Positions 8,161 to 42,873 of a DNA stretch of 64,000 nt are shown here, one piece after another. Position numbers and translations under genes: made by a program. A model generated the notes under the pieces. The model saw only the letters and a program-made list of their open reading frames with translations. It had not been told where the DNA came from and ran no database searches. The first letter of the stretch is position 1. Each line of letters starts with the position of its first letter. The DNA is from Schmidtea polychroa. Taxonomy: Eukaryota. The stretch spans positions 51,398,001 through 51,462,000 of the forward strand of contig CM097888.1 in the NCBI GenBank assembly GCA_044892525.1. Direction: 5' to 3'.

Positions 8161-8313
8161 TTTATAAACAATATTCAAATCAAAAATATTTTTAATTTAA
8201 ACTAAATTAAAACTTAAAATTACTATAATAATTAATTTGAAGGAAAACTGATTAAAATCATAAAATATTAAATATTTGTATTAGTAATAAATTTAACTAT
8301 TAAACCAATAAAC

Positions 8314-14281: not shown

Positions 14282-16848
14282 TTTTATGCATTAAACAAAT
14301 TGTGACAAATTCAGGAAATCGAAAATCGTTTCAAACATTTTTTCATTTTAAAAAACAATAAAACAAATAATTTGCCATAAGAGTTTTCCACGTAAAAACA
14401 ATTCACGCTTGAATGCTTTTGCATCTTCACATTTACGCGATCAACCAATCAAATCATCGGAATTTATGCAATTTATATCAAATGCAATTTAATTGTTATT
14501 TTTACAAATTTAATAATGTCTAATTTTACGTTTCTAGATCTGAAAGCTCGTTGGAAATATGTTGACAGTCCTTGGGATTTATTAACAGCTTGTGAGGAAA
14601 TGAAGTTGAATAAATCAACAAGAAATACTCTCGTATTCTGTATATTTAGCCATATAATGGGCTTCTGGGCAGCTTACATCCTCCCCATAATTTCCCTATT
14701 TGGCATTATATCAAACATGATAACCATTTATATATTAAGTTCCAAACTCCATGACCGAACTCGTCAGTATATCTATCTGTCATTTATAGCTGGTTGTGAT
14801 TCGGTAAATATTATTTGTTACGGTTGGATTTGGATCTTTTTTGCTAAAGGATTACCATATGCTTCTTTTGGAAAGGTTTCTTTTTTCACTTATAACCAAG
14901 GGGAAATTTCATGCAAACTTCATCGCTACTTTATAGCAGCTATTTCTTGTTCTGCCAGTTCCATATTTCTGTTGGCATCAGTTGATAGGTGGTTTGCTAT
15001 TTTTTGGCCATTAAAATGTTTAAACATTCCTCTTAAACGAGCTTGGCAGTCTTCAATTGGAGTGATTATATCTAGCTTCATTCTAATGAGTCCATTTGCC
15101 ATCTATATGGGATACACTGAAATTGGGAATCAGAAAACTCTCTGTTGGATCAAAGTTTCAACTGATGAGCAAGGTTTGGCAACCTTTTTGCAAGTTTATA
15201 ATGTATTATTCTCATTTTGCGGATCCTTCCAAACTGTTGCAATTATTGTTGTCAATGTAGCATTGTTTTATCAAATAAATAAAGGACAACAATTAAGGGA
15301 TCAAATTAGAGCCGCAAATTGCTCTAATGTACGCAAGGAAATGTCTGCATGTGTCATTTTACTTGTATTATCTATATTGTATACAATTGGTTCGCTACCA
15401 ACGTCGATTTCCTTTATTTTGGCGTTTCTTATGCAGAATGAAACAGATCCAGAAGCTGAAGACCGTTTAAGATTTGCGTATAATATTGGTGATATTGGAT
15501 GGAACATTTATATGCTTCAACAATGCACAAATGGCTTGGTATTTTATTGGAAAATGCCGAGTTTCAAAGACGCCCTTCATCGGTTGCTTCATGTAAAAGA
15601 GGGACCAAAGCAAAATATTATTGTGACCACTTCTAATGCGTATATATCTAACAATTAGCGGGTTTCTCTGTATGAAGAAGGGGATGACTTTGCATGATTT
15701 TGCAATAAATTCATATAATTCATATTTACAAGCATTTTTAGCATTTAATAGAACAATTTCACAATAACGCATTTTTTGAATTAATTATCTTTTTGCAATT
15801 TTACGTTATTGTCATTTTGTATTGACATTCATTTACTGATAATATCATTATTTAGTTTATTTTCTCATTATTTTTATTTTTGATTATATATTTTTCATTT
15901 TCCTGGATCAAATAAATTATATTTGCGAACGAGGAGCCGCAAATAACAAACGCTTACTTTTTAATTTTTATGATTATGCGCATCGGACAGACTAAAATTA
16001 GTCAATGAGATTTCAGCTTTATTAATAATTTTTATTTTAAACTTTCTTTGACAATTAATTTGAACCATTTGATATGGTGATTAATTATTATGCGCGCATG
16101 GTGATCCCGTCTAAATACATTCGCAGTGAGGTGGCATGTTATTATGTATTATATAACTTGTGAATAGAACTGCCAGATAATCATATTTTAATTAAATGGC
16201 ATGACAAGATGCATAAATTTCTAACTAAATTGTTTGTGAATTGCTAAATGTTGTTTGAAAATGATCATATTTTACTAAATTACTTAAGGAATTACTATAT
16301 ATTTAAAATAACCATGTATTTTTCACTAAATTGGCTAAGAATTTGCCATGGTAAACAAATATAATTGCATGACTAATAAATTTGCGACATAAGTGCATAA
16401 TTAACTAGGACATTGCAATACATACGCATGGTTAACAAAGGCACTGAAAATATCATTATTGGATTTCGTCAAAGATGATTATAGCAGTAATATCAGAAGG
16501 TCAAGTCAAATATACCAGGAAATGGTAACCCCATAAAAATGATTTTAATTTAATTTGTTATTGAAAATTTATATTAAGGCCTTTTTAAAAATTTCAATTT
16601 TATAAGAAATCTGAAAATAAAATTACACAATTTAAACAAATAATAAAAAATTAAATACAAATCACTTCATTTAAAGAAATATATGATAATAAATGTTTAA
16701 GGAGGTACCATTTCCTGCTGTGTTTGGCTCGGGCCCATGCGCGTATGTAGGGGGGGGGGGGTTACTGGGGGGTTTACCCCCCCCCCATGATTCCAACAAC
16801 AATATAAAAAACTATAATTAATACATATATAAACTTAAAACAATTTAA
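14282..16848 (+). repeat. Arm 1 of a ~2.57-kb near-identical inverted duplication (partner 38674-41237)
   Basis: Reverse complement matches 38674-41237 through the GPCR, its flanks and the MITE end. Both arms stop at an N-gap at the same base. Confidence 0.9.
14516..15658 (+). CDS. Intronless orphan rhodopsin-like (class A) 7TM GPCR, 380 aa
   Basis: Seven hydrophobic segments, TM1 GxxxN, TM3 Cys (SCKLHRY) and DRW (DRY variant), TM6 SLP, TM7 NGLVFY. Confidence 0.9.
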   Translation: MSNFTFLDLKARWKYVDSPWDLLTACEEMKLNKSTRNTLVFCIFSHIMGFWAAYILPIISLFGIISNMITIYILSSKLHDRTRQYIYLSFIAGCDSVNIICYGWIWIFFAKGLPYASFGKVSFFTYNQGEISCKLHRYFIAAISCSASSIFLLASVDRWFAIFWPLKCLNIPLKRAWQSSIGVIISSFILMSPFAIYMGYTEIGNQKTLCWIKVSTDEQGLATFLQVYNVLFSFCGSFQTVAIIVVNVALFYQINKGQQLRDQIRAANCSNVRKEMSACVILLVLSILYTIGSLPTSISFILAFLMQNETDPEAEDRLRFAYNIGDIGWNIYMLQQCTNGLVFYWKMPSFKDALHRLLHVKEGPKQNIIVTTSNAYISNN

Positions 16849-17035: not shown

Positions 17036-19974
17036 CTCGGGCCTTTCTCTTTACATCTCATTACTTGGTCAACTATATGTTTTTCTCTGCCAAGGAATAA
17101 ATCATGAGAACGAAAGATTTTTGATGGAAAGACATTTAATATGAAATTCAAAATTAGATCAAGTTCGTGATTAATAATTTTGTTAGGGTTGTTAATTTTG
17201 AAATTATTATAACTTCCATGTAATTAAGAAGGGAATATTGGAAATTTCAAAATCAAAAGATCAACAAATCATCAAATTAAAATTTGAAAAACCGGTCAGT
17301 TGCAAATGATGGGGAAGATCATGGTGAGAATGGATTTATAAGAATATGCTTAGAAAGAGTCGAAATGCAAGGAAATGTACAAAAACAGAAAATCGTTATT
17401 TTAACCCGAGCTAAGTAAACAGACAGAGAAGTAAATAAAATCGATGTTGGAAAACAATGACAGCATGAGTAATGGAAAAACGAAAAATTGTCACAGAAGA
17501 GATACACGGTGGGACAATTAATTATTTTCTTCAACGACGAGAAAATGAAAAGGCCACGAGGTAAAAATTGCCATAAAGAGACGAAGTAGTCAAAGACCCA
17601 TCAATCAATGCGATTATTTTTTCTTTATAAAAGAACTAAAACTTAGGAACAATCGGCATTTTGCCTCATGTAGAGATAGACAGAACGACAGTAGACTAAG
17701 GGAAATTTGTTAAAATTAGAAGATAGAATTAATGGAAGAGAAATGAAAAGGATTAAATCAAGTCATAGGATTAAAGAAAGAGGTGATTATTATTGCAGAA
17801 CCAAAGCGGTCACAGGGAGACTTGTTGAAAAGTCAAAATAGACGTTTTTATTGCGATATTCAGATTTTTGTAAATTGTAAATTGTACGAATTTGAATACA
17901 AATATACGTTGAGTGTTGATTGGCAAATTGTTTTTATAGAACACGTGAAGTCAGAAACACTGACGTTAACATTTATTTCATTGAAAACTCAACAATTTTA
18001 TTATTATTTATATTATGTTTATAATAAAAAAAATATATTTGTCAAATTGCATATAAGAAATAAAGATTTCATCGTGATCACGAAATGAGGAATAAACACA
18101 TTTATTCTCAATTTATTTTAATTAAATTTGATACGATTTAAATGTAATTTTTTCAAAATGTACATGAAATAATGTAGCAAAACTAAAGGGCGACAGTACA
18201 AAATATACATAAAATATGAAATAATTCAAGAAATTGTTATTCTTTCCTCTTGAGCAGAGAAATTCACAAATAAAATTTAGGAAGATACTTAATGTCTGTT
18301 ATATTTCCAACAGTTTTCTAGCTATCCTATTTTTGAATAATGTGCTTTGATTACGTTTTTGTGCTTAGCTTGTTCTCAATAAGTTTTCTGTGAAGGTTTC
18401 AAATAAGTTCGGCTACGATGACGGTTCTGACGTGTTTCATTATTAATTTTAGGAGGAGAGAGTTGACTATGATTGAAGAATATATTTTGACTAAAGCATA
18501 TTTTAACGCGTTATTTCGCAATCCGTCTTATCAAATTTCTGTATCACTAAGTTTCATTTGTATCTTGTTCAACTCTTTGGAGCCTCTAATATAAACTCCA
18601 ATATGTAAAGTTTGATAAAAGATGTTTAACTACTGATATTTACATTGATATTTACATGAACGATCTCTTTCTTGTCTCAAATTACAAAAACACATAAAGA
18701 AAGTCTTTTTTTATTCTACCTAACAATTATATATCAACAAAGGTGCGCTAAAGAATATTTTGCGGACTCGATTGATGGGAAACCAGATTCCACATATCTA
18801 TTTTGAGAATAGTACATAGAGAGGTAGCAACCTTCAGATTTGAAAATCTTGACTTCGACTTTAACAATTTTTAACCATCACTAGCTAAGTGATTTTAATT
18901 TTATTGTTATGTCGCTCTTATTCGATAGCAATTAATTAACATACTCGAGTGGCGAAACTGTACAATGTAATACACATTGGATTGGCATGTTATTTTAATT
19001 TATATAAGAAAGTCAGGCGCTATATAACTTGTTGATAAAATTGTCAAAATAGCAAAGATAACACGATGTGTTATGCATGTCATATCGCAATTCCGTACAG
19101 ATAGCAGTCAACATGCATAGCCTGCCATTCAAACGCATATAGTTAAATAAAAAATTTGTCTCATGGAAAGCTCTTGAATGGCGTAAGTTATAGAATTTCA
19201 TTGCGTTGCATTGCACCTAAAATCTTTTTATTTGGTTCATCAACTTCCACTCTTTATATTTTATATTATTCTATTGGTTTATATGGAACAAAAGTATTAC
19301 CATTTGTTTTAATTATTAAATGCGCGAACTATTCGTACAGCAATCAAACTGTTGTCAAATTAGTAAAAGACAACATCAAAGAATACATATTGTATCAAAT
19401 CCTTAATTGGTGAACACATAAAATGACCTCCTTATAAGGGAACTGAGTACACCCAAAGGATAAGGTGAGCTACCATATATTCGTAAGATAGAACTTTATA
19501 ATAGCAAATTCCATACTGACATTGTATTAACTCGAGGTCTGTAAAAGAGACGACGTTTTGAATTAAGTAAGTTAGATGTTACTAGAACATCTTCTAGATT
19601 GTCTTTAGTTGGAAAACTTGAAGGCAAAGACATAATCCAATTTATTATTTATTATTTCAATTTATTTTAAACTATTATAACAAAATATTTGAAATATTTT
19701 ATTCTCAGCTATAAACACCTTACAAAATGAAAATTGTGCATGTCGGCTACTCTTTTGGTTCTCAGGCTAAACATATTTTCAATTAACACTTGGTAATAAA
19801 GAATGTCAAAAGTACAAATAAAAATTGGTAAATTTCGACGTCATTCGCTATTTTGACCAATCGTATGAGTTATATTTTGTGAAATTTGACTAAATTGTCA
19901 ACGTATTTGCTACTCTCAAATTAATAAGTCCAATAAATGGTAAGACTTGGCGAATTACATTGAGTCTTCATAGA

Positions 19975-21111
19975 ATGTCAAATATAACTTATTCGGTCCT
20001 CAAATCCCAATGGAAGTTTGTGGACAGTCCTTGGGATTTATTAACAGCTTGTGAAGAGCTTCAGATGTCATATCGCAATCAAAATTCTAACAAATTCTGC
20101 ACGTTAAGCCAAGTGATTGGGGTATGGTCAGCTTTTATTTTCCCCTCAGTATCCTTGATTGGTATTGTTTGCAACATTGCGACTGTGAATATTTTTATTT
20201 TTAAACTTCAAGACCAAACTCGTCAGTATTTTTATTTGTCCTTTCTAGCAGTATTCCAATCACTAAATATCATTTGTTATGGATGGTTATGGGTATTTTT
20301 GGCTAAAGGTTTGCCTTACGCAACTAACGGGAGAATGTATTTTTTCTCATACAATCAAAGCCAAATTTTCTGCAAAATCCACCGATATTTTATTTCAGCA
20401 ATTTCATGCTCTGCAAGCTCCCTATTTCTCTTGACATCAGTTGATCGGTGTTTTGCTATATACTGCCCATTGAAATGCTTAAACATTCCAGTGAAGCGAG
20501 CTCGACAATATTCTATATGTGTTGTGATGGTCAGTTTTGTTTTAATGAGTCCATTTGCCTTTTTTATTGGTTATAATCAAACCGGGTACAATAAAACAAT
20601 TTGCTGGATTAAAGAATCTCATAGTGAAGATTCAATGGGAACTTTTCTACAAGTCTATAACGTCCTATTCTCCTACTGTGGATCATTCCAAACTGTCGCG
20701 ATTATTTTAGTAAATTTTGCATTGTTTTATCAGGTTAAAAACGGGCAACGGTTGCGAAATCAAATGAGAATCGCAAATTGCAAAAATCTACGAAAAGAAA
20801 TGTCAGCTTGTGTTATTTTGTTAGTTTTGTCCGTGGTGTTTACTATAGGGTCATTGCCGACCTCGGTAGCTTTCATGATTGGATTCCTTATACAGAATCA
20901 ATCTGGCCCAGATGCAGAAGATAATTTAAAGTTTGCATATAATATTGGAGATGTTGGGTGGCACCTTTACATGTTACAACAATGTACAAATGGGTTCATA
21001 TTCTATTGGAAATTGCATAACTTCCGAAACGCCATCAATTCCATGTTTCATATTCACAATGTTCAGAAAACAGAAAACAGAAAGAATTCATTTTTGAGAA
21101 GAATTTTATTT
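19975..21111 (+). CDS. Intronless orphan 7TM GPCR paralogue; C-terminus runs into a gap
   Basis: Starts MSNITYSVLKSQWKFVDSPWDLL (first ATG 19975, homologous start). Colinear with the other GPCRs. Stop codon not visible. Confidence 0.9.
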
Positions 21112-21620
21112 NNNNNNNNNNNNNNNNNNNNNNNNNNNNNNNNNNNNNNNNNNNNNNNNNNNNNNNNNNNNNNNNNNNNNNNNNNNNNNNNNNNNNNNNN
21201 NNNNNNNNNNNNNNNNNNNNNNNNNNNNNNNNNNNNNNNNNNNNNNNNNNNNNNNNNNNNNNNNTAACAATTTCCTCACTGAACATCATTGTTTAAATTA
21301 TGACAAAAATAAACATCAAAATTAAATATTTTTTGACGTTGTTATTGATGTTAACAATTTCCGAAGAAAATGAATTCTAGAGTAAATAAGCGAAAGTTTT
21401 TCAAGTTTTATCTGATGAATTTTCATCTACTTTATGTGAATTTATGGGTAATAATTAATACTGACTATTATTGTCGATGTTTAATAAAGACCCATTCGAA
21501 TGGATGCGAGAGTGTGAAGAAAATTTTCCCGTCCTAGAAGAGTTCCCATTAAGAATTGTGGTGGGACAGCTCGGGTGAATATATGTCGGTGAATGAGCGA
21601 TTCTGTGCAATTTATCAATT

Positions 21621-22590
21621 AAAATAATTTTCTTATGGACTAAAAAGAAGAAAATAATTTTTCTGTGCATAAATATCTTGAATACATACATACATACTTA
21701 GAGCTTATAGCAATATTCTATAACTAAAAACGTGCGGCGCATTTTAGAATAAATATCAGAATATTTTTCATAAATTCGAGAAAAGTCAAGTATATTGAAA
21801 TTGCTCAATCATTAACCTTTAATGAGACTGCGTGAACTTCGTTTTTTAAAAAAATATTTATGATTTTTCAATCATTAAACTGCTTATTTGCAGGTGCATT
21901 ATCAGAATATTTTATAAATAGAATTTCTTAACTTTATAAATTTTAATTCACATATTTTTGACTTTCATTCGAAATTGTTATTGAAACGAATGTGGACATG
22001 AAAAATCCGTGCCAAATACTTACTTGAAAACCAACATATTTATAGCTTTACCAATGTGAAATGTTTTCAGCTCAGAGTTAAATATTTCAATGATTTACCA
22101 GAATAATTTTAAATTGTAAATAATTGACTATTAAAATAACTTTTAAATAATTTTTAAATTGGATTTTTTAAGTTGAAATTTTTGAATTAAAAATTAAAAT
22201 AGTTTTTTAAAAAAGAAGTTTTATTAATGAAAATTTTTTAAATAAATATGTTTTAAATATTGAAATATTTTGATAAATGGTTTTGAAAATATTTTATTCA
22301 ACGCTGAAAATTTGTTTAAAATTATACAATATGTCATATAATAAATACTTGGAATTATGTAATTAACTTTTGAACCGGATTTAAAAAATAATTTAGAAGA
22401 TGTGTTAGCAGCTTCTAATGACCAGTATAATTAAGGCTTTATGAATCAATATTTTGATACTTATTCTAAAATGCGCCCCACGTTTTAGTTATAGAATATT
22501 GCTGTAAGCTCTAAGTATGTATGTATTCGAGATATTTATGCCCAGAAAAATTATTTTCTTGTTTTTAGTCCACAAGAAAACGTGGTATTT
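21621..22590. mobile_element. Foldback/MITE-like element with ~145-bp inverted arms and a ~680-bp AT-rich spacer
   Basis: 21621-21765 is approximately the reverse complement of 22447-22590 (e.g. CATACTTAGAGCTTATAGCAATATTCTATAAC). The ORF track shows the same spurious MYVF.IFM.RKII peptide on both strands. No TSD resolved. Confidence 0.75.
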
Positions 22591-23846
22591 TAAAAAGTTT
22601 TTTTACTTATATTATTTTGCTCTTTTTAGTCTTCTCAAATCTTACAACCGATCTTCTGCCAAAACCAATCTTTTTCATATGTGCATTTTTTACGCAGAAC
22701 ATATTTTTTCTCCTGGATCGCGACTTTTAATGAATTTTTCAGTAATGCAATACATAGATGGAATATAAAATTCCGTCATACTTGCGTTTTTCACCTTAAA
22801 CAGATCGGTTAAGTATAATTAAGTTCTGAAAGTAGTAAAATATTGTGTTGTCATAAAAAGCAAGCATGTATACAAAATTTCAGCGAAATTGGATTATTGA
22901 AAGTGCTACAAAATTCGATCGAAAGACTTGACCCGAACATACAAGAAACCAAGTTAAGAAAAGCGTGGTAAAAACTCTTTTTAGAAATGTCTCTTAAAAT
23001 CTAATGTTAAGTATTGTCTTTGGTTCTCTTTTCGTAACCCAACCGTATTTCCTGTCAAGTATTATGGCACCTTTTTTACAGCGCAATCGGTATTACTGAC
23101 TATTCTAGCTATTCTGGTAGAAAAGTACAAGACTGGCTGACACATACGAACCATTTATTGAAAAAAATGTAAAAATCACATTTTGCGAAAAATGAGTTAA
23201 ATAATAATAATTTTAAAGGAAATTGCAATTAAACAGATTTAATTAATTTTTCTGAAAAGGTTATTTTCTACTACTTTCAAAATAAATCACTGCTGGGGCA
23301 CCACTCTGTTGACCATCAATATTTCCATTTTCGTCCTAGGGGATGAGTGCCCATTTATGATTACGCTTATCGTTACTTTGTCAACCCTGAGTAGAGCCCC
23401 ACATAACCTGTACTCCAACATAGCACCTGTGAATTACTTCACGTTGGAAATGTGCTATGCCGACGAGACGCCAGTAAGCAGGTGAGCCCCTACCTTAGGA
23501 CTACTCCTTACTGAGGCCTCGACTTCCTACCTCTGACCGCCGATAGAAGGACTTACGTCTACTCAGTTCATCACCCCATTTCAACACCTTTCGTTTGGAT
23601 TGCACACTGATCAATACCTCTCGAATGCTAGAAACTGTTAACACTATTTCCCTAACTTCATGCCGAATCTTTTATAAAAAGAAAATATATCAGGACGAAA
23701 ACTATTTATTTTTTACATTGATATACAGAAAACATCGACGATTTACACAGCAGATATACAAGGATAAGAGAAACGCAAGAGTAAAAACGTGATTAGTTCG
23801 ATTTCAGATTTCTCCAGTGGATCATGTCAGGTTCACGGGAATGTTC

Positions 23847-24596
23847 TCACTTTTCCCACTCTGTATCTGCCAGCAGTTCTTCCAGGTCAAAGAATTCGGA
23901 GGCGTTTTCCTCCCATGTCACGCCGGCGGCTGAGATAATCCGTGCCGGAATTCCTGTCGTTAGATCGATGGATATATGCGAATTGTCAGTATTGATGGTC
24001 GTTCCCGTTGAGGGGTCGTTGGATTTCGTTGATGCTCGTTCGCGCTGCCTCTGCTTGCGCTTGACTCGAGATAATTGCTTACGCTTGGGTTTCGAAGTGG
24101 ACGGATTATTTTGTGATACAGCTGATGAAGACATGATATTGGGCTGTACTTTGCTAATCCTGGTGATGACAAGGTCCGGACATTTGGGAGAGAGCTCGGT
24201 CTCTACGCAATCGTGACAAGACTTCGTGAACGGAGATGAAGACTTGGCGGAGGTATCGTGATGCACGGGGAAGATGTTGTCTGCTTCATTTATCGGGATT
24301 TTGACAATTCGTCGCGTTGTTGCTGCTTGTAAATACACCTTGTGCAACGCTTCTGATTGTTCTTTTATCAGGCTTCTTTGTGCACGACTCTCAGAAATTA
24401 GAGCGTCACGACAATGCTCGCTTCGATATAATTTTTTATTGACTTCCTTCATTTGAGCGGGGGTAAACCAGGTACCCTCCAACTCGTCTATCTTCTTCTT
24501 ATAACGCCCTATCTGAGCTTGTAAGTCCTTGATTATCATATTCTTATCTGAGCAGGAAAAACAGGGCCGGAGAACAGGTTTTGTATTTGGTAGCAT
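23847..24596 (-). CDS. Uncharacterised 249-aa CxxC/coiled-coil protein of element A
   Basis: Intact ORF, about 52/80 identical to the 35348 ORF in the N-terminal domain. Acceptor TCTTCTTACAG 9 nt before the ATG; AATAAA at 23705-23710. Confidence 0.8.
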   Translation of the reverse strand: MLPNTKPVLRPCFSCSDKNMIIKDLQAQIGRYKKKIDELEGTWFTPAQMKEVNKKLYRSEHCRDALISESRAQRSLIKEQSEALHKVYLQAATTRRIVKIPINEADNIFPVHHDTSAKSSSPFTKSCHDCVETELSPKCPDLVITRISKVQPNIMSSSAVSQNNPSTSKPKRKQLSRVKRKQRQRERASTKSNDPSTGTTINTDNSHISIDLTTGIPARIISAAGVTWEENASEFFDLEELLADTEWEK

Positions 24597-26460
24597 GTCT
24601 GATAGCTGTAAGAAGAGATAAAACTAAATAGAATGAAACTAAATTTGCAAAGTCATCATTCCGACACAATCGTGGGTCTCTTTATTAGAACTTCCTACAG
24701 CAAGGAGACGGAGTCAACTAGCAAGAGGAACTCCCCCCCCCGACCATAAATCTTTATCCCTTTGCGATTTATTAGTTATAGGAAAATCAACTAGTAACAC
24801 ATACTGTTGCTTAACGAATGTAGTACCTTGTTGTTGAAAAAATGAAAATTCTATATTTGTGAAATTCGTGAAAATTAGGTTTTTCCTTGAAAATGTTAAA
24901 TCGTATTCAAGAGCTCAACGCCAAATATAAGACTACTTTACAAAAAGGAAATTATACAATATGAAGATTTGATAGATTTTTGCGATTAATCAATTTTAAT
25001 TAATTATTATTGGTGAATATTAAATTTAAAAGTTCTAAAATTTAGACCTACAACGTACAATCACACGCCATTCGTTATCTATGGTAAATTGCAATCCCTC
25101 AGTACTGATGACTGTTATCTAATAATATGAATACCACATGGTGTGTACCGGATGGAATCTCTCACTACAGCCATTTATCACGAATTTACCTAGTGTCAAA
25201 TCAAATATTCTGAGAAAAAGCTAATGGTAGCAACATATGGGAAATTCTCGGATAATGATATTAGATAATGCTGTATTGACGCTAATGAGTGTCCACATGC
25301 GAATTCTACTGCTGGAACTAGGACTACGTGTATTTGCGTGTGTGTGCATGCACGGGCGGGCAGCTGCTCTATGAAATTCTATCGGTTAGCGTTGTAGATT
25401 TGGATTTTTCAGATATTACTGCACTGAGTTGATTTCTATCGTACGCGAAAATTGAAAACACGAAATTCCCTCTCGTCGCTCGTTGGATATATTATTTTCG
25501 TGGATGATTTATGGAGCCATTTAGGACATATTTATCGATCTTTACTCTCTGACAATGATCATTTTGCATTTGCTCAACAGAAGCGTGTTTTATACACTGA
25601 CTCGTATGCAGGTAGTTCGTGAACATTTTTCATTTTATGTAATCTCAATTTTATGATATTGCTATATTTTATTAAATGGTTACCATACTACCGGAGTAAG
25701 TATCTTAACACGAGATTCATCATCAGAGCCAATTTCGAGTGGTCATTTCGAAAGGAAAAATTAAAAATCAGATAGATGATGTTTGCCCTACTGATAGAAT
25801 TGAAAGATCTGGATTTATAAATTTTCAAAATGCGAGAATTATGGAAAGATTGCAGATGCGAAGCATCTAGACTCGCTCATTCACTGTGAATCACCACTAC
25901 TACTTTTCCTATACATTAAAAACGATTTTGCTTCTTACTTTTGACTTTTCTATATGCATTTTAAGTGACCTTCAGCGTTTGGACCCGTGAAGAAGCCACC
26001 ACATTTCGGCCCAATCTAGCTGCGTGATTGAAAAACTTCATGTCCACCGGCTGAGCTCCCGAAGGTACCTCACACCATGACATGAAGTTTCTCAACTCCA
26101 CGTTACTCAAGAAGTTGAAAATCATAAACTAATAATTCATAAAGCTAATTATAAACTGTGAAAACTATTATAGGTACTGAAATCATTTACTTAATTACAA
26201 TCATTAATAGGGATCAAATGAAAAGAAAACTATTCAAATTAAAATTTTAATTATTCATTAAATAATCATAATTACTATTAACTTTAAAAACAAACAAAAT
26301 GTAGAATAAAATCTCCTTACTATCGAGTGTGGGCTTAGTCGAAAATATAGTAATCGTCTTTCAAAAATTGTCTGATGATTTCGGATCCTGTGGTTCTTCG
26401 AATATCGATTTCTACTGTTGATTATGCTTTAGCTTTGAATTGGTTGTGAGTCGCTGCTAT

Positions 26461-26590
26461 CTATGAAGTTTTTTGAATTAACCGTCTCATAATTTAAAGT
26501 TTCTTACCTATGAAGTTTTTTGAATTAACCGTGATTTTTATGATTTTGGTGCCTGCTTATATATCAATTTTTCATTTATGCGGACCAATC
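26461..26590 (-). promoter_or_regulatory. Element A promoter with duplicated 25-nt first exon and 47-nt mini-intron
   Basis: GATTGG, TATATAAG, then ACGGTTAATTCAAAAAACTTCATAG|GTAAG...ACGGTTAATTCAAAAAACTTCATAG| (repeats 26508-26532 and 26461-26485). Confidence 0.65.
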
Positions 26591-27935
26591 AAAATTGAGT
26601 ACCGCTTAATTTTTTGAATTAATTTGTTTTTTCCTATTTCTTTAGGTATTTTCCTTATTTTTCCTATTTTTATTATACCTTTTATTTATTTCTTAAATTC
26701 CTTATTATTTGTTGCATTTTTCGTTATCTTATTCGTCATCTTTTTACCTTATTTTTAATTTTCTCATTTTTATTTTTTGTTTTAATCCTTATATCGTATT
26801 TTATTGTTTCTTTTATGTCTTGACTTATTTATTTTAAAATTTGTTGTCTTATTTTATTTTATTCACATCCTATCTGTCTTAATTTCCGACGATTATATTT
26901 TCGACTTAGCCCAACATCACTCATACATATTTACTTCCTAAACAAATTTTTTGTTCATCAACTAGTATTTTGTTTTTTCATTTAATATGAATTTTCGGCA
27001 AAGACTTGTTTGAAAATTTTATTTGAAAACGGTAATGAAAAAATCCGTATTAACTATGCAACAAAATATTGATCGATAATCTAAAAAAGAAATGAAGATA
27101 AAAGAAAAAAAACATTTCACACCAAATATTTTTGAACAAAAGATTATCAGACTAACTCAAAACGAATTTTTGGAATTTTTAATCAACATCTATCTACCAC
27201 AGGGTGCAAATTTTAGGATTGATACAATATTTTTATTATTCAACTCGTTACACTCAAAGTAATCTCTTTTATTTTTCAGTATTTGCAAATAATCTACTTT
27301 AATTAAGAAAATGAAATAACTTATTTTCATTATTAATATCCTCTTTTTCAATTTTGGTCTGTAATTTATTATATCACTTTAGTAAAAGATCAAATATGAA
27401 TGTTGCTCACAAGTGTTTGTATTGTTCATAACTTAATTATTTTATACTCCTCGACCAGAATGACTAAACATTATTATTATATTGATAAATTTTATAATAC
27501 AAACCCGTTATTATAATCAAGAGTGAAAACAAGTGGTATTTAAAAAAATTACAATAGGCATAGACGAAGTGAATAAATAAATAAATTACTTTGCTCAAAT
27601 AAATCAAGCACAGACTATTTTCAATTTATTTTTCTTGATTTTTCTAAGTTTTTCAGAAATTCTGGTCATTGTCTTGATCAAATGGTCTATTTTGTTGAAC
27701 TATATATTTCAACGGGATAACAAAATTAACGTTTAATTGTTAATTTTCGAGCTATTTTCATTCATAATTTTATTTAGGGTTGCAAGTATTGCTTCGATGT
27801 TGACCCACAGAAAAAGAATTTTGATGTTATATAAAGACGGTGTAATAAAACATCTACTTACATCTACACAATATATTAAATTTATTTTAAGAAAATAAGA
27901 AAAAATAAAAATTCAAAATTCATCATACCATATAT

Positions 27936-29111
27936 AGACTGCCAGTCTCCAGATGATTAAGCTATCAGTGGTATCGACTGTCTCAACTTAGAACCCAGAT
28001 CACTTGGACCTAGATTATTGGTAGTCACTATATAAACCAAATGGTAAATTTGAATTAACCCATTGACACGATTCGAAGAATTATCATAGAAAGCAAAATT
28101 TCTGGGTCAAAATGACGATGTTGATATCCTTAATGTTATTTATCTTCATTCTTTTAGATTATATCAGTTAATGTTTTGCTTTAAAATAAACATTGATTTA
28201 AACTTGATAAAAACTATTGGGAAGATTTTAGTTTTAAATATTTAAATTCAAAATAATTTCTACTTAAAGTTGTAAATAATAAAAATTATTATTTCTGTAA
28301 AATTAATAATTAAAATTCTTAACTCAGCAGAAAATATATATTTGTTTAAATTCTCTGTTATATTCATTTCAAATTGACATTTTTAAATAAGCATTTCGAT
28401 GGTATCAGAAATTGGAATTATTAAATAAATCATTTCGACTTTTTTCTTTGAGTTCTATTGTATTAATAATAAATTTTATAATTTAAATAATTCTGAATTA
28501 TGATTTATTTTTACCCTGAATATTTAATATTTTTAAAAGTATCATTTTATATACAATTTAAGCATTTTAAAGATTAATTACGATGCTACGTTTATTTTAT
28601 ATTAATTATTATTGGCATTAATAAATATATCGATATGAAATTGTAAAAATGGTGGCGATCGTGTTTTATTTTATCTTACATTTAGTTATTAATGAATAAT
28701 ATTTTGTCAATTAAATTTATAAATGGTTACTGTTACATTATGAGTTTTAAATAGCTTTTTAAATTTGAAATATTAATGTTTATATCGATATTAGCATTTA
28801 TTAATCGTTATTTCTTGCCACTTTAATCGTTACTGGAAATACTGCTAAAGTACAGGGCCAAAATGTCAACCGCTAAGTGTATATTTCCCATCGTTTTCTG
28901 TGAAATATAAAATATTGAGAAATCAATATATACAAAAATCTAAAGCCGAGTGGGACAGCTAGGAATTTCAACATCATCTTGTTTACCCGGACACTCCAAA
29001 TCGGGTGAATTGGAAACTTATCATATTATAGATATGACCACATATAATCTTGGTTCTAAGTTGAGGCAGTCGACACCACCGACAATCTAATCAGCTAGAG
29101 ACAGGCAGTCT
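27936..29111. mobile_element. Non-autonomous TIR element (~1.18 kb, ~65-bp diverged TIRs)
   Basis: AGACTGCCAGTCTCC...GTCTCAACTTAGAACCCAGAT at 27936 is the inverted counterpart of ATCTTGGTTCTAAGTTGAGGCAGTCG...ACAGGCAGTCT ending at 29111. No TSD resolved. Confidence 0.65.
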
Positions 29112-30701
29112 GAATAATATATAATGAATTTTTTTATTTAATTTACTTATAATGAATTGAATATATTGCGTAAATATAAATAGATGTTTTCATTAACCTC
29201 TTACTAATCCTCTTTCTACAACAACAAAATTCTTTCTATCGGTCAACAGCGAGGAGTTAATGTGTTACCAAGTAGTCAAGGTCAATTTTAATTGTTTCAA
29301 ACAATGGAATTATTAATGAAAATAATTATTTGTAATATAATGGGAAAATGTTTAGATGGATTCGAGGATTTACGATAACGGCTATATCTCAGTCCGAAAC
29401 TCTTTTTTGAATACATATTTTTAACATATTTATTTTAATCTTAATGATTATATTTCATTTTCAAAACGATTGAGAATAAAACAAATTTCAGTTTCTAAGT
29501 TATAATATTTCTTATTGAAAAATTATTGTAAATATCAAAATGAATATATTTATTAATAATTAAGGTTTCATTCTCTAAAAATTAATTCTAACACCAAAAT
29601 ATCGATGTTATGGAATTAAATCATAAAATGTTGGGACTTATATCAGATGAAATTGTTAATTATATGAATATTGATCCGATGCTGATCCGACACAGAGCAT
29701 AGATGGTATAGACAGCAATCTAGGCCTGATTTATCATTTTATGTAAAACAAACTTTATGCAATTTTTATGTGTAATTAATTCATTGTTTCATTCAATGGC
29801 GTTTATGTAGGTTTATCCGATAAATTTTATTGTACAAAATACGTACTGGTTTTCATCTATTCCTTTATTATTGTATTTAATCGACCACTTTGGCGACCCC
29901 TGGTTTGGGGCATTAAATGAGAGTAACAAAAATACAAATGTTTTTAATGCAATAATCTTATGATAATACAAATGACTATTTTTGAAAAATTTATAGTTAT
30001 CTAATCTAAACTAAGTCTACTATTCTACGCTAATTCAAAATTTCTGAAATAATTATAAATTTTTAACATATCCAAACCAGTTTGAAACCGCAATCATCTG
30101 GTTACCTTTCCTTATTTGTTTGCATTGGAGCTTTCTTATTTTCCTTCCTGAAAATTCAAACTTTTTTGCAAGAAAATTTTGTGATCACGTAATGTATGTT
30201 TAACCATATTTTAAATTTCTGTATAACTTCTCAAAGGCTGGGAAATCTGATTGAATAATAGATCAAAGATCCGTTCTTGTGTCTTCATTATTTATAAGGT
30301 TCTGAAAGGGAGTATATTGGACAATTTAGAACTTTTTATATCTATTGTTCATAATAAACATGAATTTTTAAAATAATAGTTCCATTCCAGTGAAATAGAC
30401 AATTAATTCTGAAAAATTGATGCATTTAAACAATTAATAAATCTTATGAAAATTACACTTTGTGTAGTACATCAGCCCCCCCCCCCCAAAAAAAAATAAT
30501 TGGGGAATTTATGCTCATTCATTAAAGAAATATCAGTTTTTTTATATTTCTTCATATTCTAGCCTATCAAATCATTTCATTAAATAAAAGTATATTTACA
30601 ACTATGTTATTGGTTAAAAATAATGCTTTAAATTGTAGAAATTAAACAAAATGGATAAAAAAAGAATTGTTAATACTAAATTGAATAAAAAGAATTTATG
30701 G

Positions 30702-31844
30702 ATGTCTAATCTGACTTATTCCGATTTAAAGGCCCAATGGAAGTTTATAGACAGCCCCTGGGATTTATTGGTACCCTGTGAGGAAGTCAAATTAAAACAA
30801 ACTAATGAAAATAATAATTTGTTTTGTGTTTTCAGTCAAATAATGGGATTTTGGTCGGCATTCATTTTCCCAGTGATTTCAATTTTTGGTATTTTCCTTA
30901 ATATTTTAATTATTTACATTTTTAACTTTAAATTCCGAGATAAAAGTCGGCAGTATATTTATTTATCGTTTCTAGCAGCCTTTGATTCGTTCAATCTTAT
31001 CTGCTCGGGATGGATGTGGATATTTTTCGCTAAGGGTTTACCATATGCGTCGTCGGGAGTTCTTTATTTTTTCACTTACAATCAAGGAGTGATACCTTGT
31101 AAACTTCACCGCTACTTTACGGCAGCAATTTCTTGTTCAGCGATTTCAATTTTTCTGTTGACCTCGATTGATAGATATTTTGCAATATTTTGGCCGCTAA
31201 AATGTTTGAATATCCCACTGAAAAGATCTTGGCAATATTCATCGATGGTCGTTTTGTTGAGCTTTATAGCGATGAGTCCTTTTATTGTCTACATGGACCA
31301 TAGTCAGACTGGAAACCATAAAACGATTTGTTGGCTAGAAGCATCAAAAGATAAAAAATCTTTAGGAATGTTTTTGCAGATTTATAATATTCTTTTTTCA
31401 TTTTGTGGTTCCTTTCAAACTTTGGCGATTATTTTATTTAATTTAAGTTTATTTTATCAAGTGAGTAAAGGGCAAAGGTTAAGAGAACAAATACAAGCAG
31501 CAAATTGTAAGAATATCAGAAAAGAAATATCTGCTTGTGTGATTCTTTTAGTTTTATCAGTTCTTTTTGCAGTTGGCTCATTACCAACTTCCATATCGTT
31601 CATTTTAGCTTTCCTCATGCAAAATGATACAGGACCAGATGCTGACCAGCGCTTGAGATTCATTTACAATATTGGTGATGTTGGTTGGCATTTATACATG
31701 GTACAACAATGCACAAACGGGTTGATCTATTACTGGAAAATGTCTCATTTCAGAAATATTGTGAAGAAAATATTCAAAATTCCCATTTGGAATAAAATAC
31801 CCAAAAGTCAGAGCACACTGAATGCACATTTATCAGTTCGATGA
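30702..31844 (+). CDS. Intronless orphan 7TM GPCR paralogue (380 aa from the conserved MSNLT start; upstream in-frame ATG at 30651)
   Basis: MSNLTYSDLKAQWKFIDSPWDLL start, canonical DRY, colinear with the other paralogues. Confidence 0.9.
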   Translation: MSNLTYSDLKAQWKFIDSPWDLLVPCEEVKLKQTNENNNLFCVFSQIMGFWSAFIFPVISIFGIFLNILIIYIFNFKFRDKSRQYIYLSFLAAFDSFNLICSGWMWIFFAKGLPYASSGVLYFFTYNQGVIPCKLHRYFTAAISCSAISIFLLTSIDRYFAIFWPLKCLNIPLKRSWQYSSMVVLLSFIAMSPFIVYMDHSQTGNHKTICWLEASKDKKSLGMFLQIYNILFSFCGSFQTLAIILFNLSLFYQVSKGQRLREQIQAANCKNIRKEISACVILLVLSVLFAVGSLPTSISFILAFLMQNDTGPDADQRLRFIYNIGDVGWHLYMVQQCTNGLIYYWKMSHFRNIVKKIFKIPIWNKIPKSQSTLNAHLSVR

Positions 31845-32039
31845 AAAATATGTTTGGTGGACTTTTTATTGCACACATTTATCATTTTTATATTGAATTG
31901 AGATTAGAATAAATATTACCTCTCGTTTTGACATAATACACCTGTTTGCATGGAATAAAAGTATCTATAATATAAAAAAATCAATACTCTTATATTATTA
32001 AAACAAACAAACTTACCTTTGCACAGAATTTTGATGTAG

Positions 32040-32040
<1 letters not shown>

Positions 32041-32124
<84 letters not shown>
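32041..32124 (+). repeat. (ATT)28 microsatellite
   Basis: 84 nt of perfect ATT repeats, adjoining the distal end of the inverted Penelope pLTR fragment. Confidence 0.97.
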
Positions 32125-32277
32125 GAATAAATAGTTAAACATACATGGCAATGATTTAATTATAAGATAACGCCAATCAAACATTTTTTTCACGATTAAT
32201 TTCGACAGTTTTCCTGTCATCATCAGGTGGGATATAATACTCATTAAATAAAGGATTTTAAACAAATTTAATTATAT
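32125..32277 (-). mobile_element. Inverted pseudo-LTR fragment of a Penelope-like element
   Basis: Reverse complement of 32232-32270 matches 37250-37287 (AATTTGTTTAAAATCCTTTATTTAATGAGTATTATAT), the 3' UTR of the GIY-YIG ORF. Contains a hammerhead motif. Confidence 0.75.
32191..32229 (-). ncRNA. Minimal type I hammerhead ribozyme of Penelope pLTR type
   Basis: Minus strand CAC-CUGAUGA-U-GACAG-GAAAA-CUGUC-GAA-AUUAAU-C-GUG: stem I CAC/GUG, stem II 5 bp, palindromic stem III AUUAAU, cleavage triplet AUC. Confidence 0.8.
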
Positions 32278-32776
32278 TGTTGGGCTAAGTTTTGAAGTAG
32301 AGAAAAACTGGGTTAAATCGGGAAACGAGCCGCAAAAAATATAAACGAAATATAATAAAAATAAATCCCCATCAAACCTCAATAATAAATAAGGAAACAA
32401 TAAAATACCCATAAAAAGAAATAAGAATAAATGATAAATAAATAAAGCCCTTAAGAATTAGAAATAGGACATAAGAGAAATGAGTTAAAGCACAATAAAT
32501 AAAGTAAAAATAGAATAAGCAAAAAGGTAAGAGAAAATAAACGAGAAATTAAAGCAATAAATAAAAAATAAAAATATCTTTAAGTTTAATTAAAACAAAA
32601 ATTGCATTATGATAAAGTAGCAGTGAACCCGCAGAAAAAATAGGAGAAAAATAAGAAAAATAGGAAAAATAAATAAAATAATAATAAGAAATAAGTTAAG
32701 TTATTAAAAGCTAATATATTATAATAAAAACATAAAATAATAATAAATAATAAAAATTACAACCTAACTAAGTCCT

Positions 32777-32892
32777 GATTGGACGGAAAATAGTATATAA
32801 GAAACGCTAAAAATCAGTAGAGTACCACTTTAATCAAAAACTCTACAGGTAAAATTTGTTAAGTTTGACCACTTTAATCAAAAACTCTACAG
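32777..32892 (+). promoter_or_regulatory. Element B promoter with duplicated 25-nt first exon and 44-nt mini-intron
   Basis: GATTGG 32777-32782, TATATAAG 32794-32801, ACCACTTTAATCAAAAACTCTACAG at 32824-32848 and 32868-32892, GTAAAA donor at 32849. Confidence 0.65.
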
Positions 32893-35347
32893 ACTCTACA
32901 GGTTTCAAGACTTTATTCACAAACTACTACAGAGGACTAATCCAAAGAAGACTAATTTGAATTGAGGAAGAAACATACAGCGAACTATTAACAGCATTAT
33001 TCCGGAAAACCTTAGCCAATTTAACCCAGTTATTTAATCTCAAGGTATGGTAGGATATTTTTAGGTTTGATTTTATGATAGATATAATGGAATTTAATAA
33101 ATATTTATAATTGATATTAAATTTTGTAAATAACAAGGAAAATTTGTTCAATAAATTTATTTAAAAACAGAACCTGCCTTTCTTCATGGTGCCGACGACT
33201 GTACCTTCTGATGATTTCAAGTATGATGCCAAATGGAGAGAGTAGCCCCGAGGAATATTATGATATGTAGCCAAGAGATGTTGCGAGGATATTGGATCAG
33301 GAGCAAGCGATAATAATGGATACGATGCCAATACTGTAAGGGAATATTGGGTTGGAAAATGAGAAAGCATCATACTTGGAACTCAGACGATATGGTCGTC
33401 GGTAATTTGATTCATTTACTTGATTATTATTTGTTCCATTTTTATTATTTATATCTGAAATTTGTTTTTAAATTGCTGAATGCGAAAGAGTCGACTGGTC
33501 CCTCGTGATCGTCCGAGAATGGCGGCAGAGATGATTGCCTTCTTGGGTGTGTTATGAGGGGTGTAGAGGCTCAGTAGGTTAGGATAACAGGCTGAAGGAT
33601 GGAATTTCTTCACCGAGCTCGCATCGTTCTTAGTAAGTTCCATAGCTTCAATAAGTCACCTCGATACTTCTAATAATAGCGGAGGAGATTTAAGTTGAGA
33701 GCCGAAGACAGTTCGGAGTTGAGATTGACAATTTCATCAACGTATTAAGAATCCACATAGTTCGGCGAAATTTCTTCATAACGGTCAACCCGTCAGTCGG
33801 GATAGTGAACGAGAATGTTGTCAACAAAGCTTGGAGTGTAAATCCAGTAAATCTCGTAGAGTATTGTTTTCCTCGGTATACTAGTAGAATCTGAACCGTC
33901 GATATGTTAGCGATGACACCCGTCGACGAATGTACTTTTAAGTTAAGTGATTAGCTTCGAATCGCTGATAAACATCGTCTTCCCTGAAAAGAATGTAAAT
34001 AAGTAGGAGAGGTTATCAGATTACTCACGGATAAATGACAGAAATCGCTGACAGATTTATCAATTGATCACTGACTGAATCGAGGAACCACGATAGGAGT
34101 TATCAGTGACTTGAGAAATGAAATGCCGGCAGATGATAACTGATCGAATTAAATGACCAACGAAGCCAGATAACACCGATAATAAATTTCCACGAGGGAT
34201 AATCTAATTGACGCGCGGGTAGACATTGTCTTGTACTGGCTGCGTAATGATCAAGGCAGATTAAAAATTCTAGCTTAGTTATTGCTCATCGTTTTACTAC
34301 GTACAATTCCAGGGTGATGCTCGTAGAACACTCAGTGATAATTCCAATATATTATGTAACTGCACACACCTACACACTCCATCGTGAATCGTCTCCCAGG
34401 AGGATAGCAGAGTACTCTTGGCATTGGAATTTGGCCGTGATGTCACGATTACATAGTAACCTACTCGTAATTCCCTGAGTTGGTAGGCTGGTGTGTATGA
34501 ACAACAGAGCAGATCGTCTCCACTGCGATTTAATACGACGTCGAATTTTCTCCACTATCACATAGAAATAGACACACATGAAAGCTCAAGGTGGAGATAC
34601 TCCAACAATGCATACCGACTCAGTTAATAAATATAAGAAAATGCACACATCTACAGGTAGGCGTCACTAGGGCGACAGAAGTAGCGCGATTTTTAAAAGA
34701 ATTTTTGGAATTTAAATTATAATATAATTAGCTAATAGTATATATTTAAAGTCCTTTATGTAAATTCGTAATCACAATGCGTCATAAGGAGAGATAAATT
34801 TTTCCTGCGTTCTAGCAATACGGAGTAGGTACAAATTAATAAACTGAAATCCCCAACAATCGGATGCTATTCTTTTCCATTGATTACGAACGTAAATATG
34901 TTTGACTATAGCAGCCGGCTAAAATGCAACGAGTATGAGTTATCCGACCCGAGGGTAAAGATAGATTTTTCATCGAACCAGTTAAAATCGAGGATTCCCC
35001 GTTTTCTACTCTCCATCCTCTTGAATCAATAAATCGATCGGAATGTTGTTTCCTAAATGAGTGAATGAGGAGTGTTGAATTGTGTGAAAACAAGTTGTTT
35101 TATTGTATGCTGTGGCGTGGTATGATGAGTGAAATCTTTGAGTTTAGTGTCTCGATAGAATTTGGAACTAGATATATTTTAACCGTTAAAACGGATTACT
35201 AGAGAAAACTTAGCTGAGACATTAAAAAACATGAAATTTATGAATTAAGACACTTCGTGAAAATTACAGAATTATAACTAATGAATTCTTGTACTGGATA
35301 CCTTAATAAGTATCGCAATTCGGTTTGAACCATGATTAATTTTCTAG

Positions 35348-36109
35348 ATGACAACACCATCCAATAACGCCCAAGAACTTCGTCCGTGTTTCTCTTGCGC
35401 TGACAAGAACTCGGACATCTCTCAACTTCATTTATATATAGGGGCCCTCAAGAAGAGGATAGATCTTTACGAAGGAACGTGGTTCTCCCCGCCACAGATG
35501 AAGGAGGAAAAGGCTAAGATCCTCAGGTTAGAACATTGTAGGGACAGCCTACTAGAAGAAAGCCGATGCCAAAGGCTCACAATAAAAGCACAATCAGAAG
35601 CCCTCCATAAGGTCTACACGGAGGCAGAAATAGCAAAGCGGGTACGCGAATATCCCGTATTGGATGGATCGAATGTCTTTCCTCTCCATCACCAGTCATC
35701 TACCACTCCCACCTCAGCTTGTCGAGGGCACGGTTCCCATCTACCGCCCATCCCAGCCCCAGTGCTGTCAGGATACTTACCTATGAAAGGCGGTCCATCT
35801 GACCCAATTCTGGTCCCGATCCTAGTGGCACCCACAGTATCTACTGCTGTTGGAGGAAATCCGCCATCACGCAAACGCAAACACCCAACTAGGGCCGAGA
35901 AGACTAAGAAACGAAGAAATGCAATGAAGGCGCTCGAGGCTTCTTTGTTCGCAGCGCAGACGACAATAGCAGAGATATCCACCACTCATACGATTCCCTC
36001 GAAAGAAGTTTTCCGTATCATTCCAGCTAACGGCATCAAGTTTATCTCGGATTGTAGATTGCCGGTAGACATCGACGAGTTAATTGCCGACGGAGAAAAC
36101 TTCAACTAA
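35348..36109 (+). CDS. Uncharacterised 253-aa CxxC/coiled-coil protein of element B
   Basis: Intact ORF homologous to 23847-24596. TTTCTAG|ATG acceptor context; AATAAA at 36308-36313. Confidence 0.8.
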   Translation: MTTPSNNAQELRPCFSCADKNSDISQLHLYIGALKKRIDLYEGTWFSPPQMKEEKAKILRLEHCRDSLLEESRCQRLTIKAQSEALHKVYTEAEIAKRVREYPVLDGSNVFPLHHQSSTTPTSACRGHGSHLPPIPAPVLSGYLPMKGGPSDPILVPILVAPTVSTAVGGNPPSRKRKHPTRAEKTKKRRNAMKALEASLFAAQTTIAEISTTHTIPSKEVFRIIPANGIKFISDCRLPVDIDELIADGENFN

Positions 36110-36400
36110 AACGGTTCGCGAGTGATCCTGAATGTATTTCGAGTCGTGAATTGACTGATAAACTTCGTTAATATTGTGCATCCTAACCGTCCATATGATA
36201 TTGTATTAATAAGTGTGATGATGTTTGTTTATTTTCATTTCGGTATTAATATATTTTGTCTATTTGGTTCTGTTTTATAAAGATTTTCATATGTTTGGTT
36301 TTTTGAGAATAAAATGGTTCAGTATTACGGAAGGAAAGCTAGTAGGCTAACGGTCGTTCCCTTGGACCAGGATCGAACCAAGACTGAAACATGAATAAGG

Positions 36401-36645
36401 GTAAGTCCTTCTAAGGCACCAGTGAACCTGAACCGCGAGCGGGCTATCAGTAGTCCTAAAATAGGGGCTCACCTGTTAGTCAGCTCCGACCCGTATGGGC
36501 ACTACCAACGTGGAACATCATCACGGGCTCATGCGTGGGAATATGTAAATGATCATTTGGCGTATGCATGGGAGGTGTCTGAGCTAACCAATGCGGTCGG
36601 TATGATAATGGTTGTGTAAGTTTTCTTCTCCCTCATATGCCAACA
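36401..36645 (+). ncRNA. Putative structured cis-RNA module at the 3' end of element B (homologue at 23291-23556, minus strand)
   Basis: Blocks GTAAGTCCTTCTA, AGTAGTCCTAAnnTAGGGGCTCACCTG and CCAACGTG are shared with element A. The flanking helices differ in sequence but keep their pairing. Confidence 0.55.
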
Positions 36646-37287
36646 ATATATAAAAAAAATTTGCCGTACTCAGAAGGCTTTAAGGATTATAAAGTGAAGA
36701 TAAGAAAGCAGTTAGGGAATTTAAACTATAGGATAGTGTCAACTTCATGGAAAGTACGCAATATGTTTATTAATAAGTCAAAAACTCCGGTTGAATTGTG
36801 TTCCGATCTCGTTTATCAGTTTACATGTAATGGATGTAATGCTACATACATTGGAGAGACTTCCCGTCATCTCTGTATTCGAGCTCGAGAACATTGTAGA
36901 CCGAAGTCTTTGACCCATATTGGTGAGCACAATAAGGGCTGTAAAATTAAAATAGGTATGTCTGATTTTAAAATTTTATTAAAAAACTTCGATAATTATT
37001 TGGAACGTGTGATTTGTGAGGCGTTGTTGATAAAATCATTAAATTCGAAAATTAATGTGCAGAATGCAGTAAATACTTGTGTGTTGAGTGTTTTTAAATA
37101 AGCTTTTGTGTATTGTATGTATTGATTGTTGTGTTAAATTAAATAATGAATAAAAATTTTTTAAATTGTTAAACTAAAATTTTAAATGTTAAAGTTTTAA
37201 AAATAATATTTTTTAAAAAATGAAAAAAATTTTTTTTTATATATAATAAAATTTGTTTAAAATCCTTTATTTAATGAGTATTATATT
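36646..37287 (+). mobile_element. 5'-truncated Penelope-like element: GIY-YIG endonuclease ORF (to 37101) plus 3' UTR/pLTR
   Basis: LVYQFTCNGCNATYIGETSRHLCIRAREH...EALLIKSLNSKIN. The listed ATG at 36637 comes from the end of element B, so the ORF start is chimeric. Confidence 0.88.
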
Positions 37288-37305
37288 GAGTATTATATTA
37301 TAGAA

Positions 37306-42645: not shown

Positions 42646-42873
42646 TGTTAATAATAACCAGTTAATAATCTAGAAATAGTTATTTTTAATACAAAATGCA
42701 AAATACAAATTATTGCTCAAATCTGGTATTATTAAAACACCCGATTTAAATGGCGAATTAATTAATTAAATAATAATGATAATTATGCGTGCCAGCTTTT
42801 ATACTTATTATACTTTTTCTTATAATATAATATATATTTTATTTATAAATTAATTATTTAAATATCCCTAACA
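42646..42873 (-). repeat. 3' LTR of the gypsy element (228 bp)
   Basis: TGTTAATAAT...CCCTAACA on the plus strand, preceded by the PPT on the minus strand. Confidence 0.97.

Follow-up and report, generated by a model that had tools for sequence, protein, structure and literature searches.

Known ORFs within or overlapping an LTR include MMTV sag, HIV nef and foamy virus bel2, all of which are placed in U3, upstream of the main promoter. The rev and rex genes are located outside the LTR, and HTLV-1 Rex/RxRE has the same arrangement as Rev/RRE, in which only transcripts that retain the intron carry the structured RNA; foamy-virus Tas and Tat are the types with which a transactivator would be compared. 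As for retrotransposons, the available text of PMC6431247 describes the planarian Gypsy-like Burro/GYPSM1 elements as 24–31 kb long, with long LTRs, thousands of copies, and a polyprotein containing gag, CCHC, an env between gag and pol, PR, RT, RNase H, IN and ankyrin, as well as MATH/TRAF. A second system, CERV of the C. elegans Gypsy element Cer1, is the product of a spliced mRNA and is required for genomic RNA export (PMC10309623), and Cer1 groups with a flatworm env-bearing element (PMC13524379).

In the 64-kb stretch of DNA analysed here (the window), two related ORFs, A (23847..24596, minus strand, 249 aa) and B (35348..36109, plus strand, 253 aa), are both intact from ATG to stop, in agreement with the original prediction. 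The prediction had also assigned them to giant elements, with surrounding DNA diverged beyond alignment. The first claim stands as far as the parent is a Burro-type Gypsy element, but in the window the elements are present as solo LTRs, and the ORF is an LTR-internal gene. Solo LTR A (23291..26916, minus strand; 3,626 bp) and solo LTR B (32278..36645, plus strand; 4,368 bp) both have TG...CA ends and 4-bp target-site duplications, GTGA and ATAT, respectively. LTR B is a young subfamily member, 95–98% identical to the paired LTRs of full-length elements; for LTR A the DNA identity to such paired LTRs is 68–84%, in blocks. The second claim is correct for most of the flanking DNA, but several stretches are common to A and B: the terminal TGTTGGGCTAAG (12 bases), an A-rich 5′ part, a CCAAT + TATA arrangement and, 3′ of the ORF, an identical stretch of 13 nt and a block with 25/27 matches.

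Each LTR looks like a complete gene, with CCAAT/TATA boxes, a leader exon, an intron, an acceptor at the ATG and a poly(A) signal. The predicted promoters, each a CCAAT + TATA box, are found at 26555..26590 (minus strand) in A, with position and sequence conserved across copies, and at 32777..32802 (plus strand) in B. In most copies that include the 5′ end the boxes lie 330–520 nt from it, and we would expect them to be active in both LTRs. The predicted poly(A) signal of the ORF A mRNA is the AATAAA at 23705..23710 (minus strand), which in 18 of 19 block-bearing A copies lies 139–167 nt upstream of a conserved 3′ LTR block (23479..23556, minus strand, in A; 36401..36475, plus strand, in B). 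Candidate signals of B are found within 36248..36313 (plus strand), where AATATA occupies the conserved position and AATAAA follows 60 nt beyond; AATATA, AATACA or AATAAA is present 149–155 nt upstream of the block in 18/19 block-bearing B copies. The block itself occurs in 19/21 A, 19/21 B and 30/30 primer-binding-site (PBS)-anchored loci, that is, in every LTR type examined. It consists of two parts at fixed spacing, ORF-less LTRs included, reads as a splice donor on both strands, and has a moderate fold (z about -2.8). By eye, the end of the leader exon (approximately 33011-33020 in B and 26330-26350 in A) resembles the reverse complement of the 5′ terminus of its own LTR.

LTR B is situated between two inverted Penelope-like ends, at 32041-32277 (minus strand) and 36646-37286 (plus strand), one with a GIY-YIG frame and 3′ tail, the other with the inverted tail followed by (AAT)n; the inverted tail carries, by eye, a hammerhead-like CTGATGA...GAAA motif, for which Rfam gave no match. 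The possibility that B is itself a Penelope element was rejected, as the GIY-YIG frame and inverted tail fall outside the unit bounded by the target-site duplication. Elsewhere in the window are an ordinary Gypsy element that has gag and pol frames and a pair of identical LTRs of 229 bp (42645-47852), four single-exon rhodopsin-family GPCR frames (14396-15658, 19894-21267, 30639-31844 and 39859-41121), an inverted duplication of 98% identity (14379-16755 and 38762-41138), a 290-bp tandem array adjoining a beta-TrCP-like F-box exon (6910-8161 and 8293-9024), and a MITE-like unit of 950 bp whose terminal inverted repeats are long and imperfect (21628-22580).

The genome searched (G000) contains at least 2,398 copies of the CxxC motif; a degenerate CFSCxDKN pattern has 2,398 exact matches there, and the reversed control has 0. 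In protein searches of the same genome, 150 of 6,523 and 150 of 7,006 first-look candidates were scored. Nine same-strand match pairs were fetched, and eight of these are the two LTRs of one element, 4.0–4.2 kb long, 99.4–100% identical, and with a tRNA primer site after the 5′ LTR. The pair L038/L042 was rejected as an element LTR pair, since it is part of a larger duplication. Where uninterrupted, the elements measure 24–31 kb, and the ORF is present in both LTRs of every full-length element examined. Among 45 parsed LTR loci, a matching 4-bp duplication marks 18 as solo LTRs; two are 5′ LTRs, the others being unclassified by the patterns used. Pfam annotation of one element, covered by two overlapping stretches, identified a long frame with gag, CCHC, a fusion protein of Monjiviricetes type, protease, RT, RNase H, integrase and ankyrin; RING and RING-TRAF/MATH are encoded by ORFs of their own. 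Its MATH and RING modules are strong matches and its ubiquitin-like module a weak one (E 0.041), and no BCL2 or BIR was obtained from it at E<=0.05. By tblastn, RT, IN and gag were detected in 9/9 elements and env in 8/9. Judged by eye, 7 or 8 of 10 internal accessory ORFs start just past an AG, which implies that the element RNA probably has many splice sites. In its layout, the host element of the ORF matches the description of a Burro-type giant, env-bearing Gypsy element, which suggests that G000 is a planarian genome.

The protein is composed of an N-terminal CxxC and coiled-coil region, a linker, a basic helix and an acidic hydrophobic tail. The 52/80 N-terminal identities noted earlier were reproduced exactly (A residues 9-88 against B), and the named motifs, Pro/Ser linker, basic patch and acidic tail were all recovered in both ORFs. 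Identity is lower elsewhere (linker 15/102, tail 13/34), and BLASTP aligns A and B at 39% over 258 columns (E 1e-48). The net charge of the basic patch is +6 in A and +8 in B within 25 aa, with a mean content of about six Arg and four Lys per 22 aa, and that of the tail is -8 and -4, respectively. An AlphaFold2 model from 46 input sequences (mean pLDDT 64, pTM 0.32) predicts helices at 15-42, 49-101, 182-213 (the basic helix) and 242-247 (a short tail helix) with a disordered linker, and the heptad pattern is clear in helix 1. PCFxC is found in 46/46 representatives, which in part reflects the use of this motif to extract the copies. The tail carries F[DN]LxELL in 27/28 A representatives and a near-invariant LPVDI stretch across the 18 B representatives. 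A VIDLT-type [VI]DLT motif, which we take to be of the SUMO-interaction-like class, is present in 25/28 A and 0/18 B representatives, and a SUMO-binding motif common to the whole family was rejected on this count; a common C-terminal zipper was likewise rejected, as the segment is helical in the B model only. The basic patch suggests that the protein may be nuclear, and the conserved basic helix is also compatible with a plain nuclear localisation signal.

The earlier statement that the protein has no known domain is borne out by Pfam, sequence and fold searches, all without a family match. Pfam gave nothing above cut-off for the LTR ORF protein, and no homologue was retrieved from a 5.8-billion sequence set (near lengths only), 1.84 billion representatives, metagenome contigs or PDB sequences (best E 0.46). 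The ESM Atlas likewise gave no homologue, its best match of 0.88 being at lead level only. Foldseek with the predicted structure returned generic coiled-coil matches and 0 at E<=0.001; neither the model nor these matches revealed a DNA-binding fold, and in these searches neither sequence nor fold connected the protein to Rev, Rex or CERV. In the literature searched, Burro LTRs are nowhere described as containing an ORF, an intron or an RNA element, features that the Grohme 2018 supplements or Repbase GYPSM1 may annotate; the available portions of PMC11410931, PMC13524379, PMC6109357, PMC13238120 and PMC10899757 contain nothing on such LTR-internal features.

As originally proposed, the copies support purifying selection on an accessory protein encoded by the element. 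In an alignment of 96 distinct intact ORFs (47 A-like, 49 B-like), analysed by pairwise site counts, dN/dS is about 0.04 for the N-terminal coiled-coil domain in both A and B, and 0.12 (A) and 0.10 (B) for the whole ORF, in pairs with dS 0.6-2; these amount to 174 of 1,081 A and 537 of 1,176 B pairs, which are non-independent, and 818 A and 312 B pairs are saturated and fall outside every bin. Single-copy variants are close to neutral (ratio 0.90 in A, 0.56 in B) and variants common to several copies are constrained (0.22 and 0.17), as expected if active lineages are selected and inserted copies then decay. Because the first copies were chosen by protein similarity, the test was repeated on primer-site loci; here the ORF is intact at 12 of the 15 loci that bear it, and the N-terminal dN/dS is ~0.04-0.09 in unsaturated pairs. 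The ORF has a substitution rate similar to that of the internal accessory genes and higher than that of RT. A- and B-type elements have RT domains that are 98-99% identical, and LTR proteins with 57-58% N-terminal and 41-42% whole-length identity; the LTR and pol divergences are discordant between pairs, which suggests LTR exchange. A third protein subtype, ~42-45% identical to A and to B, is more decayed and has the same LTR layout.

The LTR intron ranges in size from 1.7 to 2.3 kb across A and B. In A it is predicted at 24606..26320 (minus strand), from a GTAAGG donor, present in several A copies, to a conserved acceptor 9 nt before the ATG; no spliced copy of A type was found among the copies examined. 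In B it spans 33045..35347 (plus strand; 2,303 nt), from AAG/GTATGG to TTTTCTAG/ATG. By eye, 52 of 53 distinct intact ORFs have a pyrimidine-rich YAG 0-10 nt upstream of the ATG, and the sole exception is a copy without exactly the 2,303 nt between 33044/33045 and 35347/35348. G000 contains this spliced-type junction at two places, one in each LTR of a single element (G000:C3 ~35.746-35.775 Mb) that is bounded by a CTTA duplication, and from this one element the acceptor before the ATG appears to be used, as had been predicted. The simplest cause of the intron loss would be reverse transcription of spliced RNA. Template switching may have produced it instead: the junction ends have an AG and a loose TTAAT-like stretch in common, and the loss is a single event. 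Within the young B subfamily the intron is kept in 37/39 LTRs and lost in two, those of the one element. Since the intron lies inside the LTR, it is part of the RNA that the element copies, and the 37 LTRs with the intron against two without it suggest that splicing happens, yet is mostly avoided in the copied RNA. The LTR ORF mRNA itself is presumably transcribed. A 53-nt GT...AG segment in B (32851..32903, plus strand), a partial leader duplication that varies among copies, was rejected as proof of splicing, being missing alike from the intron-less copy and from the intron-bearing L093. The tail of such segments (B 32851-32903, A ~26460-26505) repeats the start of the leader, and they are present in some copies only.

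Within the intron, 200-450 nt downstream of the donor, are long, irregular hairpins. The A-type structure, a long stem with a second hairpin (25962..26115, minus strand; z -4.2), is unrelated in sequence to the B-type hairpin (33465..33630, plus strand; z -3.9). Compensatory change was found at 15/48 pairs of the A hairpin among 21 distinct sequences, which 0/500 shuffles equalled, in a kind of test that relatedness inflates, and at 6/30 pairs of the B hairpin. The third subtype has its own folded block, with compensatory change at 1/34 pairs among eight close sequences. The A hairpin is present in 18/20 A LTRs and the B hairpin in 17/20 B LTRs, with 0 found crosswise; such matching to the ORF subtype is expected from linkage alone because the two are physically linked. 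An Rfam search of window positions 23000-37500 gave no match. Alternatively, the hairpin could serve in packaging, dimerisation or poly(A) signalling, or as a host-factor binding site.

Thirty PBS-anchored loci were taken, in order, out of 666 primer-site matches. Half of them (15/30) bear the ORF, and the other 15 are elements without the ORF and with short LTRs of 1.55-1.65 kb; three of the latter examined whole are ~14-17 kb including LTRs, with no pol-length frame. ORF-less elements are also without AATAAA at the position seen in A copies. Their hairpins (n=15) are of the A type in seven, of another type in seven and of neither in one. A predicted identity of the other type with the third-subtype hairpin was rejected for lack of a match, and no partner protein was found for it. 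The loci L169-L183 (G000:C1) form an abundant young non-autonomous family with 1.55-1.65-kb LTRs and the same primer site and 3′ tract, which makes up half of the primer-site sample; two of three copies carry an 877-aa frame.

Based on these features, we favour, with a probability of roughly 0.45, that the protein is a Rev/CERV-like trans-regulator of unspliced element RNA, encoded by an LTR-internal gene that is maintained by selection; we place this role ahead of the anti-silencing, nucleic-acid chaperone and Zn-bridged dimer functions that the original prediction had suggested. According to this reading, any LTR, solo LTRs included, would make a short spliced mRNA consisting of the leader exon, the ORF and a poly(A) end. 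The protein would self-associate through its CxxC-capped coiled coil, enter the nucleus and bind RNA by the basic helix, with the acidic tail recruiting a host factor. Binding to the LTR-intron hairpin would allow intron-retaining RNA to escape splicing or to be exported, and as the hairpin would be absent from spliced RNA and kept in full-length RNA, an early-to-late switch could result. In favour of this are an intron in the LTR that is mostly retained in copied RNA and a covarying, subtype-specific hairpin inside it, so that the structured cis element is confined to intron-retaining RNA as in Rev/Rex-type systems. Retention of the A hairpin by 7/15 ORF-less elements is what one would expect if a trans factor acts on a cis site, and the basic segment is Arg/Lys-rich and predicted to be helical. 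Such a combination, a basic coiled-coil protein made from the spliced form and an RNA structure restricted to the unspliced form, corresponds to Rev/RRE and, at the level of function, to CERV. Against it, 8/15 ORF-less elements have neither the A nor the B hairpin, the third-subtype hairpin is nearly without covariation, and crude regular expressions found no nuclear export signal common to A and B outside the coiled coil. That the whole regulatory circuit lies in the LTR, as a spliced Rev-like protein gene and the RNA element read by its product, is a more tentative proposal and, on present evidence, a doubtful one.

The acidic hydrophobic tail would fit a transcriptional activation domain at least as well, and the best-surviving alternative, possible if somewhat unlikely, is an LTR-encoded transactivator or anti-silencing factor of the foamy-virus Tas or Tat kind: a nuclear coiled-coil dimer with an acidic activation tail that would boost LTR promoters or block piRNA/SUMO-dependent silencing, with positive feedback from solo LTRs. 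The conservation of the tail and the SUMO-interaction-like motif of most A proteins agree with this, but the motif is absent from all 18 B representatives and a DNA-binding fold was not found. A Tat-like mode might likewise use an RNA hairpin, but the hairpin here is well inside the intron and not at the 5′ end of the RNA. The repression of Burro elements by piRNA at the chromatin level (PMC8532177) also agrees with such a factor.

A role as a host-directed accessory protein is less probable still. The protein would then be a coiled-coil decoy or adaptor for immunity, apoptosis or ubiquitin pathways, and the hairpin an unrelated cis signal. The RING, TRAF/MATH, ankyrin and weak ubiquitin-like modules of the element, and a rate of change like that of its internal accessory genes and above that of RT, are consistent with such a role, but it leaves the basic helix of all subtypes and the placement in the LTR unexplained, and a host homologue was not found. 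That the frame is a non-functional passenger, open through recent amplification, is highly improbable: near-neutral private variants and the spread of half of the PBS-anchored elements without the ORF would suit it, but neutral singletons are the outcome of post-insertion decay, frames are open though synonymous sites are saturated between many copies, and the low N-terminal dN/dS and other selection estimates, the rate comparison with RT and the primer-site repeat all contradict it.

If the whole circuit does lie in the LTR, thousands of solo LTRs would be stand-alone genes for a regulator that acts in trans. Separate regulatory subfamilies, on a nearly identical pol, would then be set apart by protein/hairpin pairs that co-evolve, and a non-autonomous element that retains just the hairpin of one pair would be a parasite of that pair. 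How LTR retrotransposons keep and export intron-containing RNA has been worked out in few cases, CERV being one, and the subtypes would offer three natural versions of a protein/RNA pair that can be tested in animals in which RNAi and in situ methods are routine. The kind of element is itself known; the novelty lies in the intron-less element and in the subtype-specific protein/hairpin pairing.

By description, the elements resemble Burro/GYPSM1 in size, long LTRs, polyprotein order, MATH/TRAF and copy number (available text of PMC6431247). They differ in that MATH/TRAF has an ORF of its own, which follows downstream of the polyprotein, and that BCL2 and BIR are undetected by Pfam, and the same portion of PMC6431247 has no LTR gene, intron or RNA element. 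As for CERV, both are accessory proteins of Gypsy elements, and CERV has a leucine zipper, a Cys cluster and a nuclear signal, but it is 517 aa long, has exons in common with gag, and contains globular M and G domains (PMC10309623, as far as available). In contrast, the LTR ORF protein is ~250 aa, is encoded wholly in the LTR and is modelled only as helices and disorder; H, M and G domains and exons in common with gag are not found in it, and in size, domains and position it does not qualify as a homologue of CERV. With HIV-1 Rev/RRE the likeness would lie in a small product of a spliced mRNA with a basic helix and an oligomerisation region (for Rev, the available part of PMC10309623). It differs from Rev and Rex in having no homology to them and no leucine-rich export signal that could be found. 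Unlike sag, nef and bel2, the ORF is downstream of the only evident promoter of the LTR and behind an intron, and a solo LTR would therefore be a complete gene. In a planarian-type genome this would amount to genes in solo LTRs at thousands of loci, encoding an unrelated protein under strong selection. The usual view of solo LTRs is that of leftovers that encode nothing; those described here each appear to constitute a complete gene, intron included.
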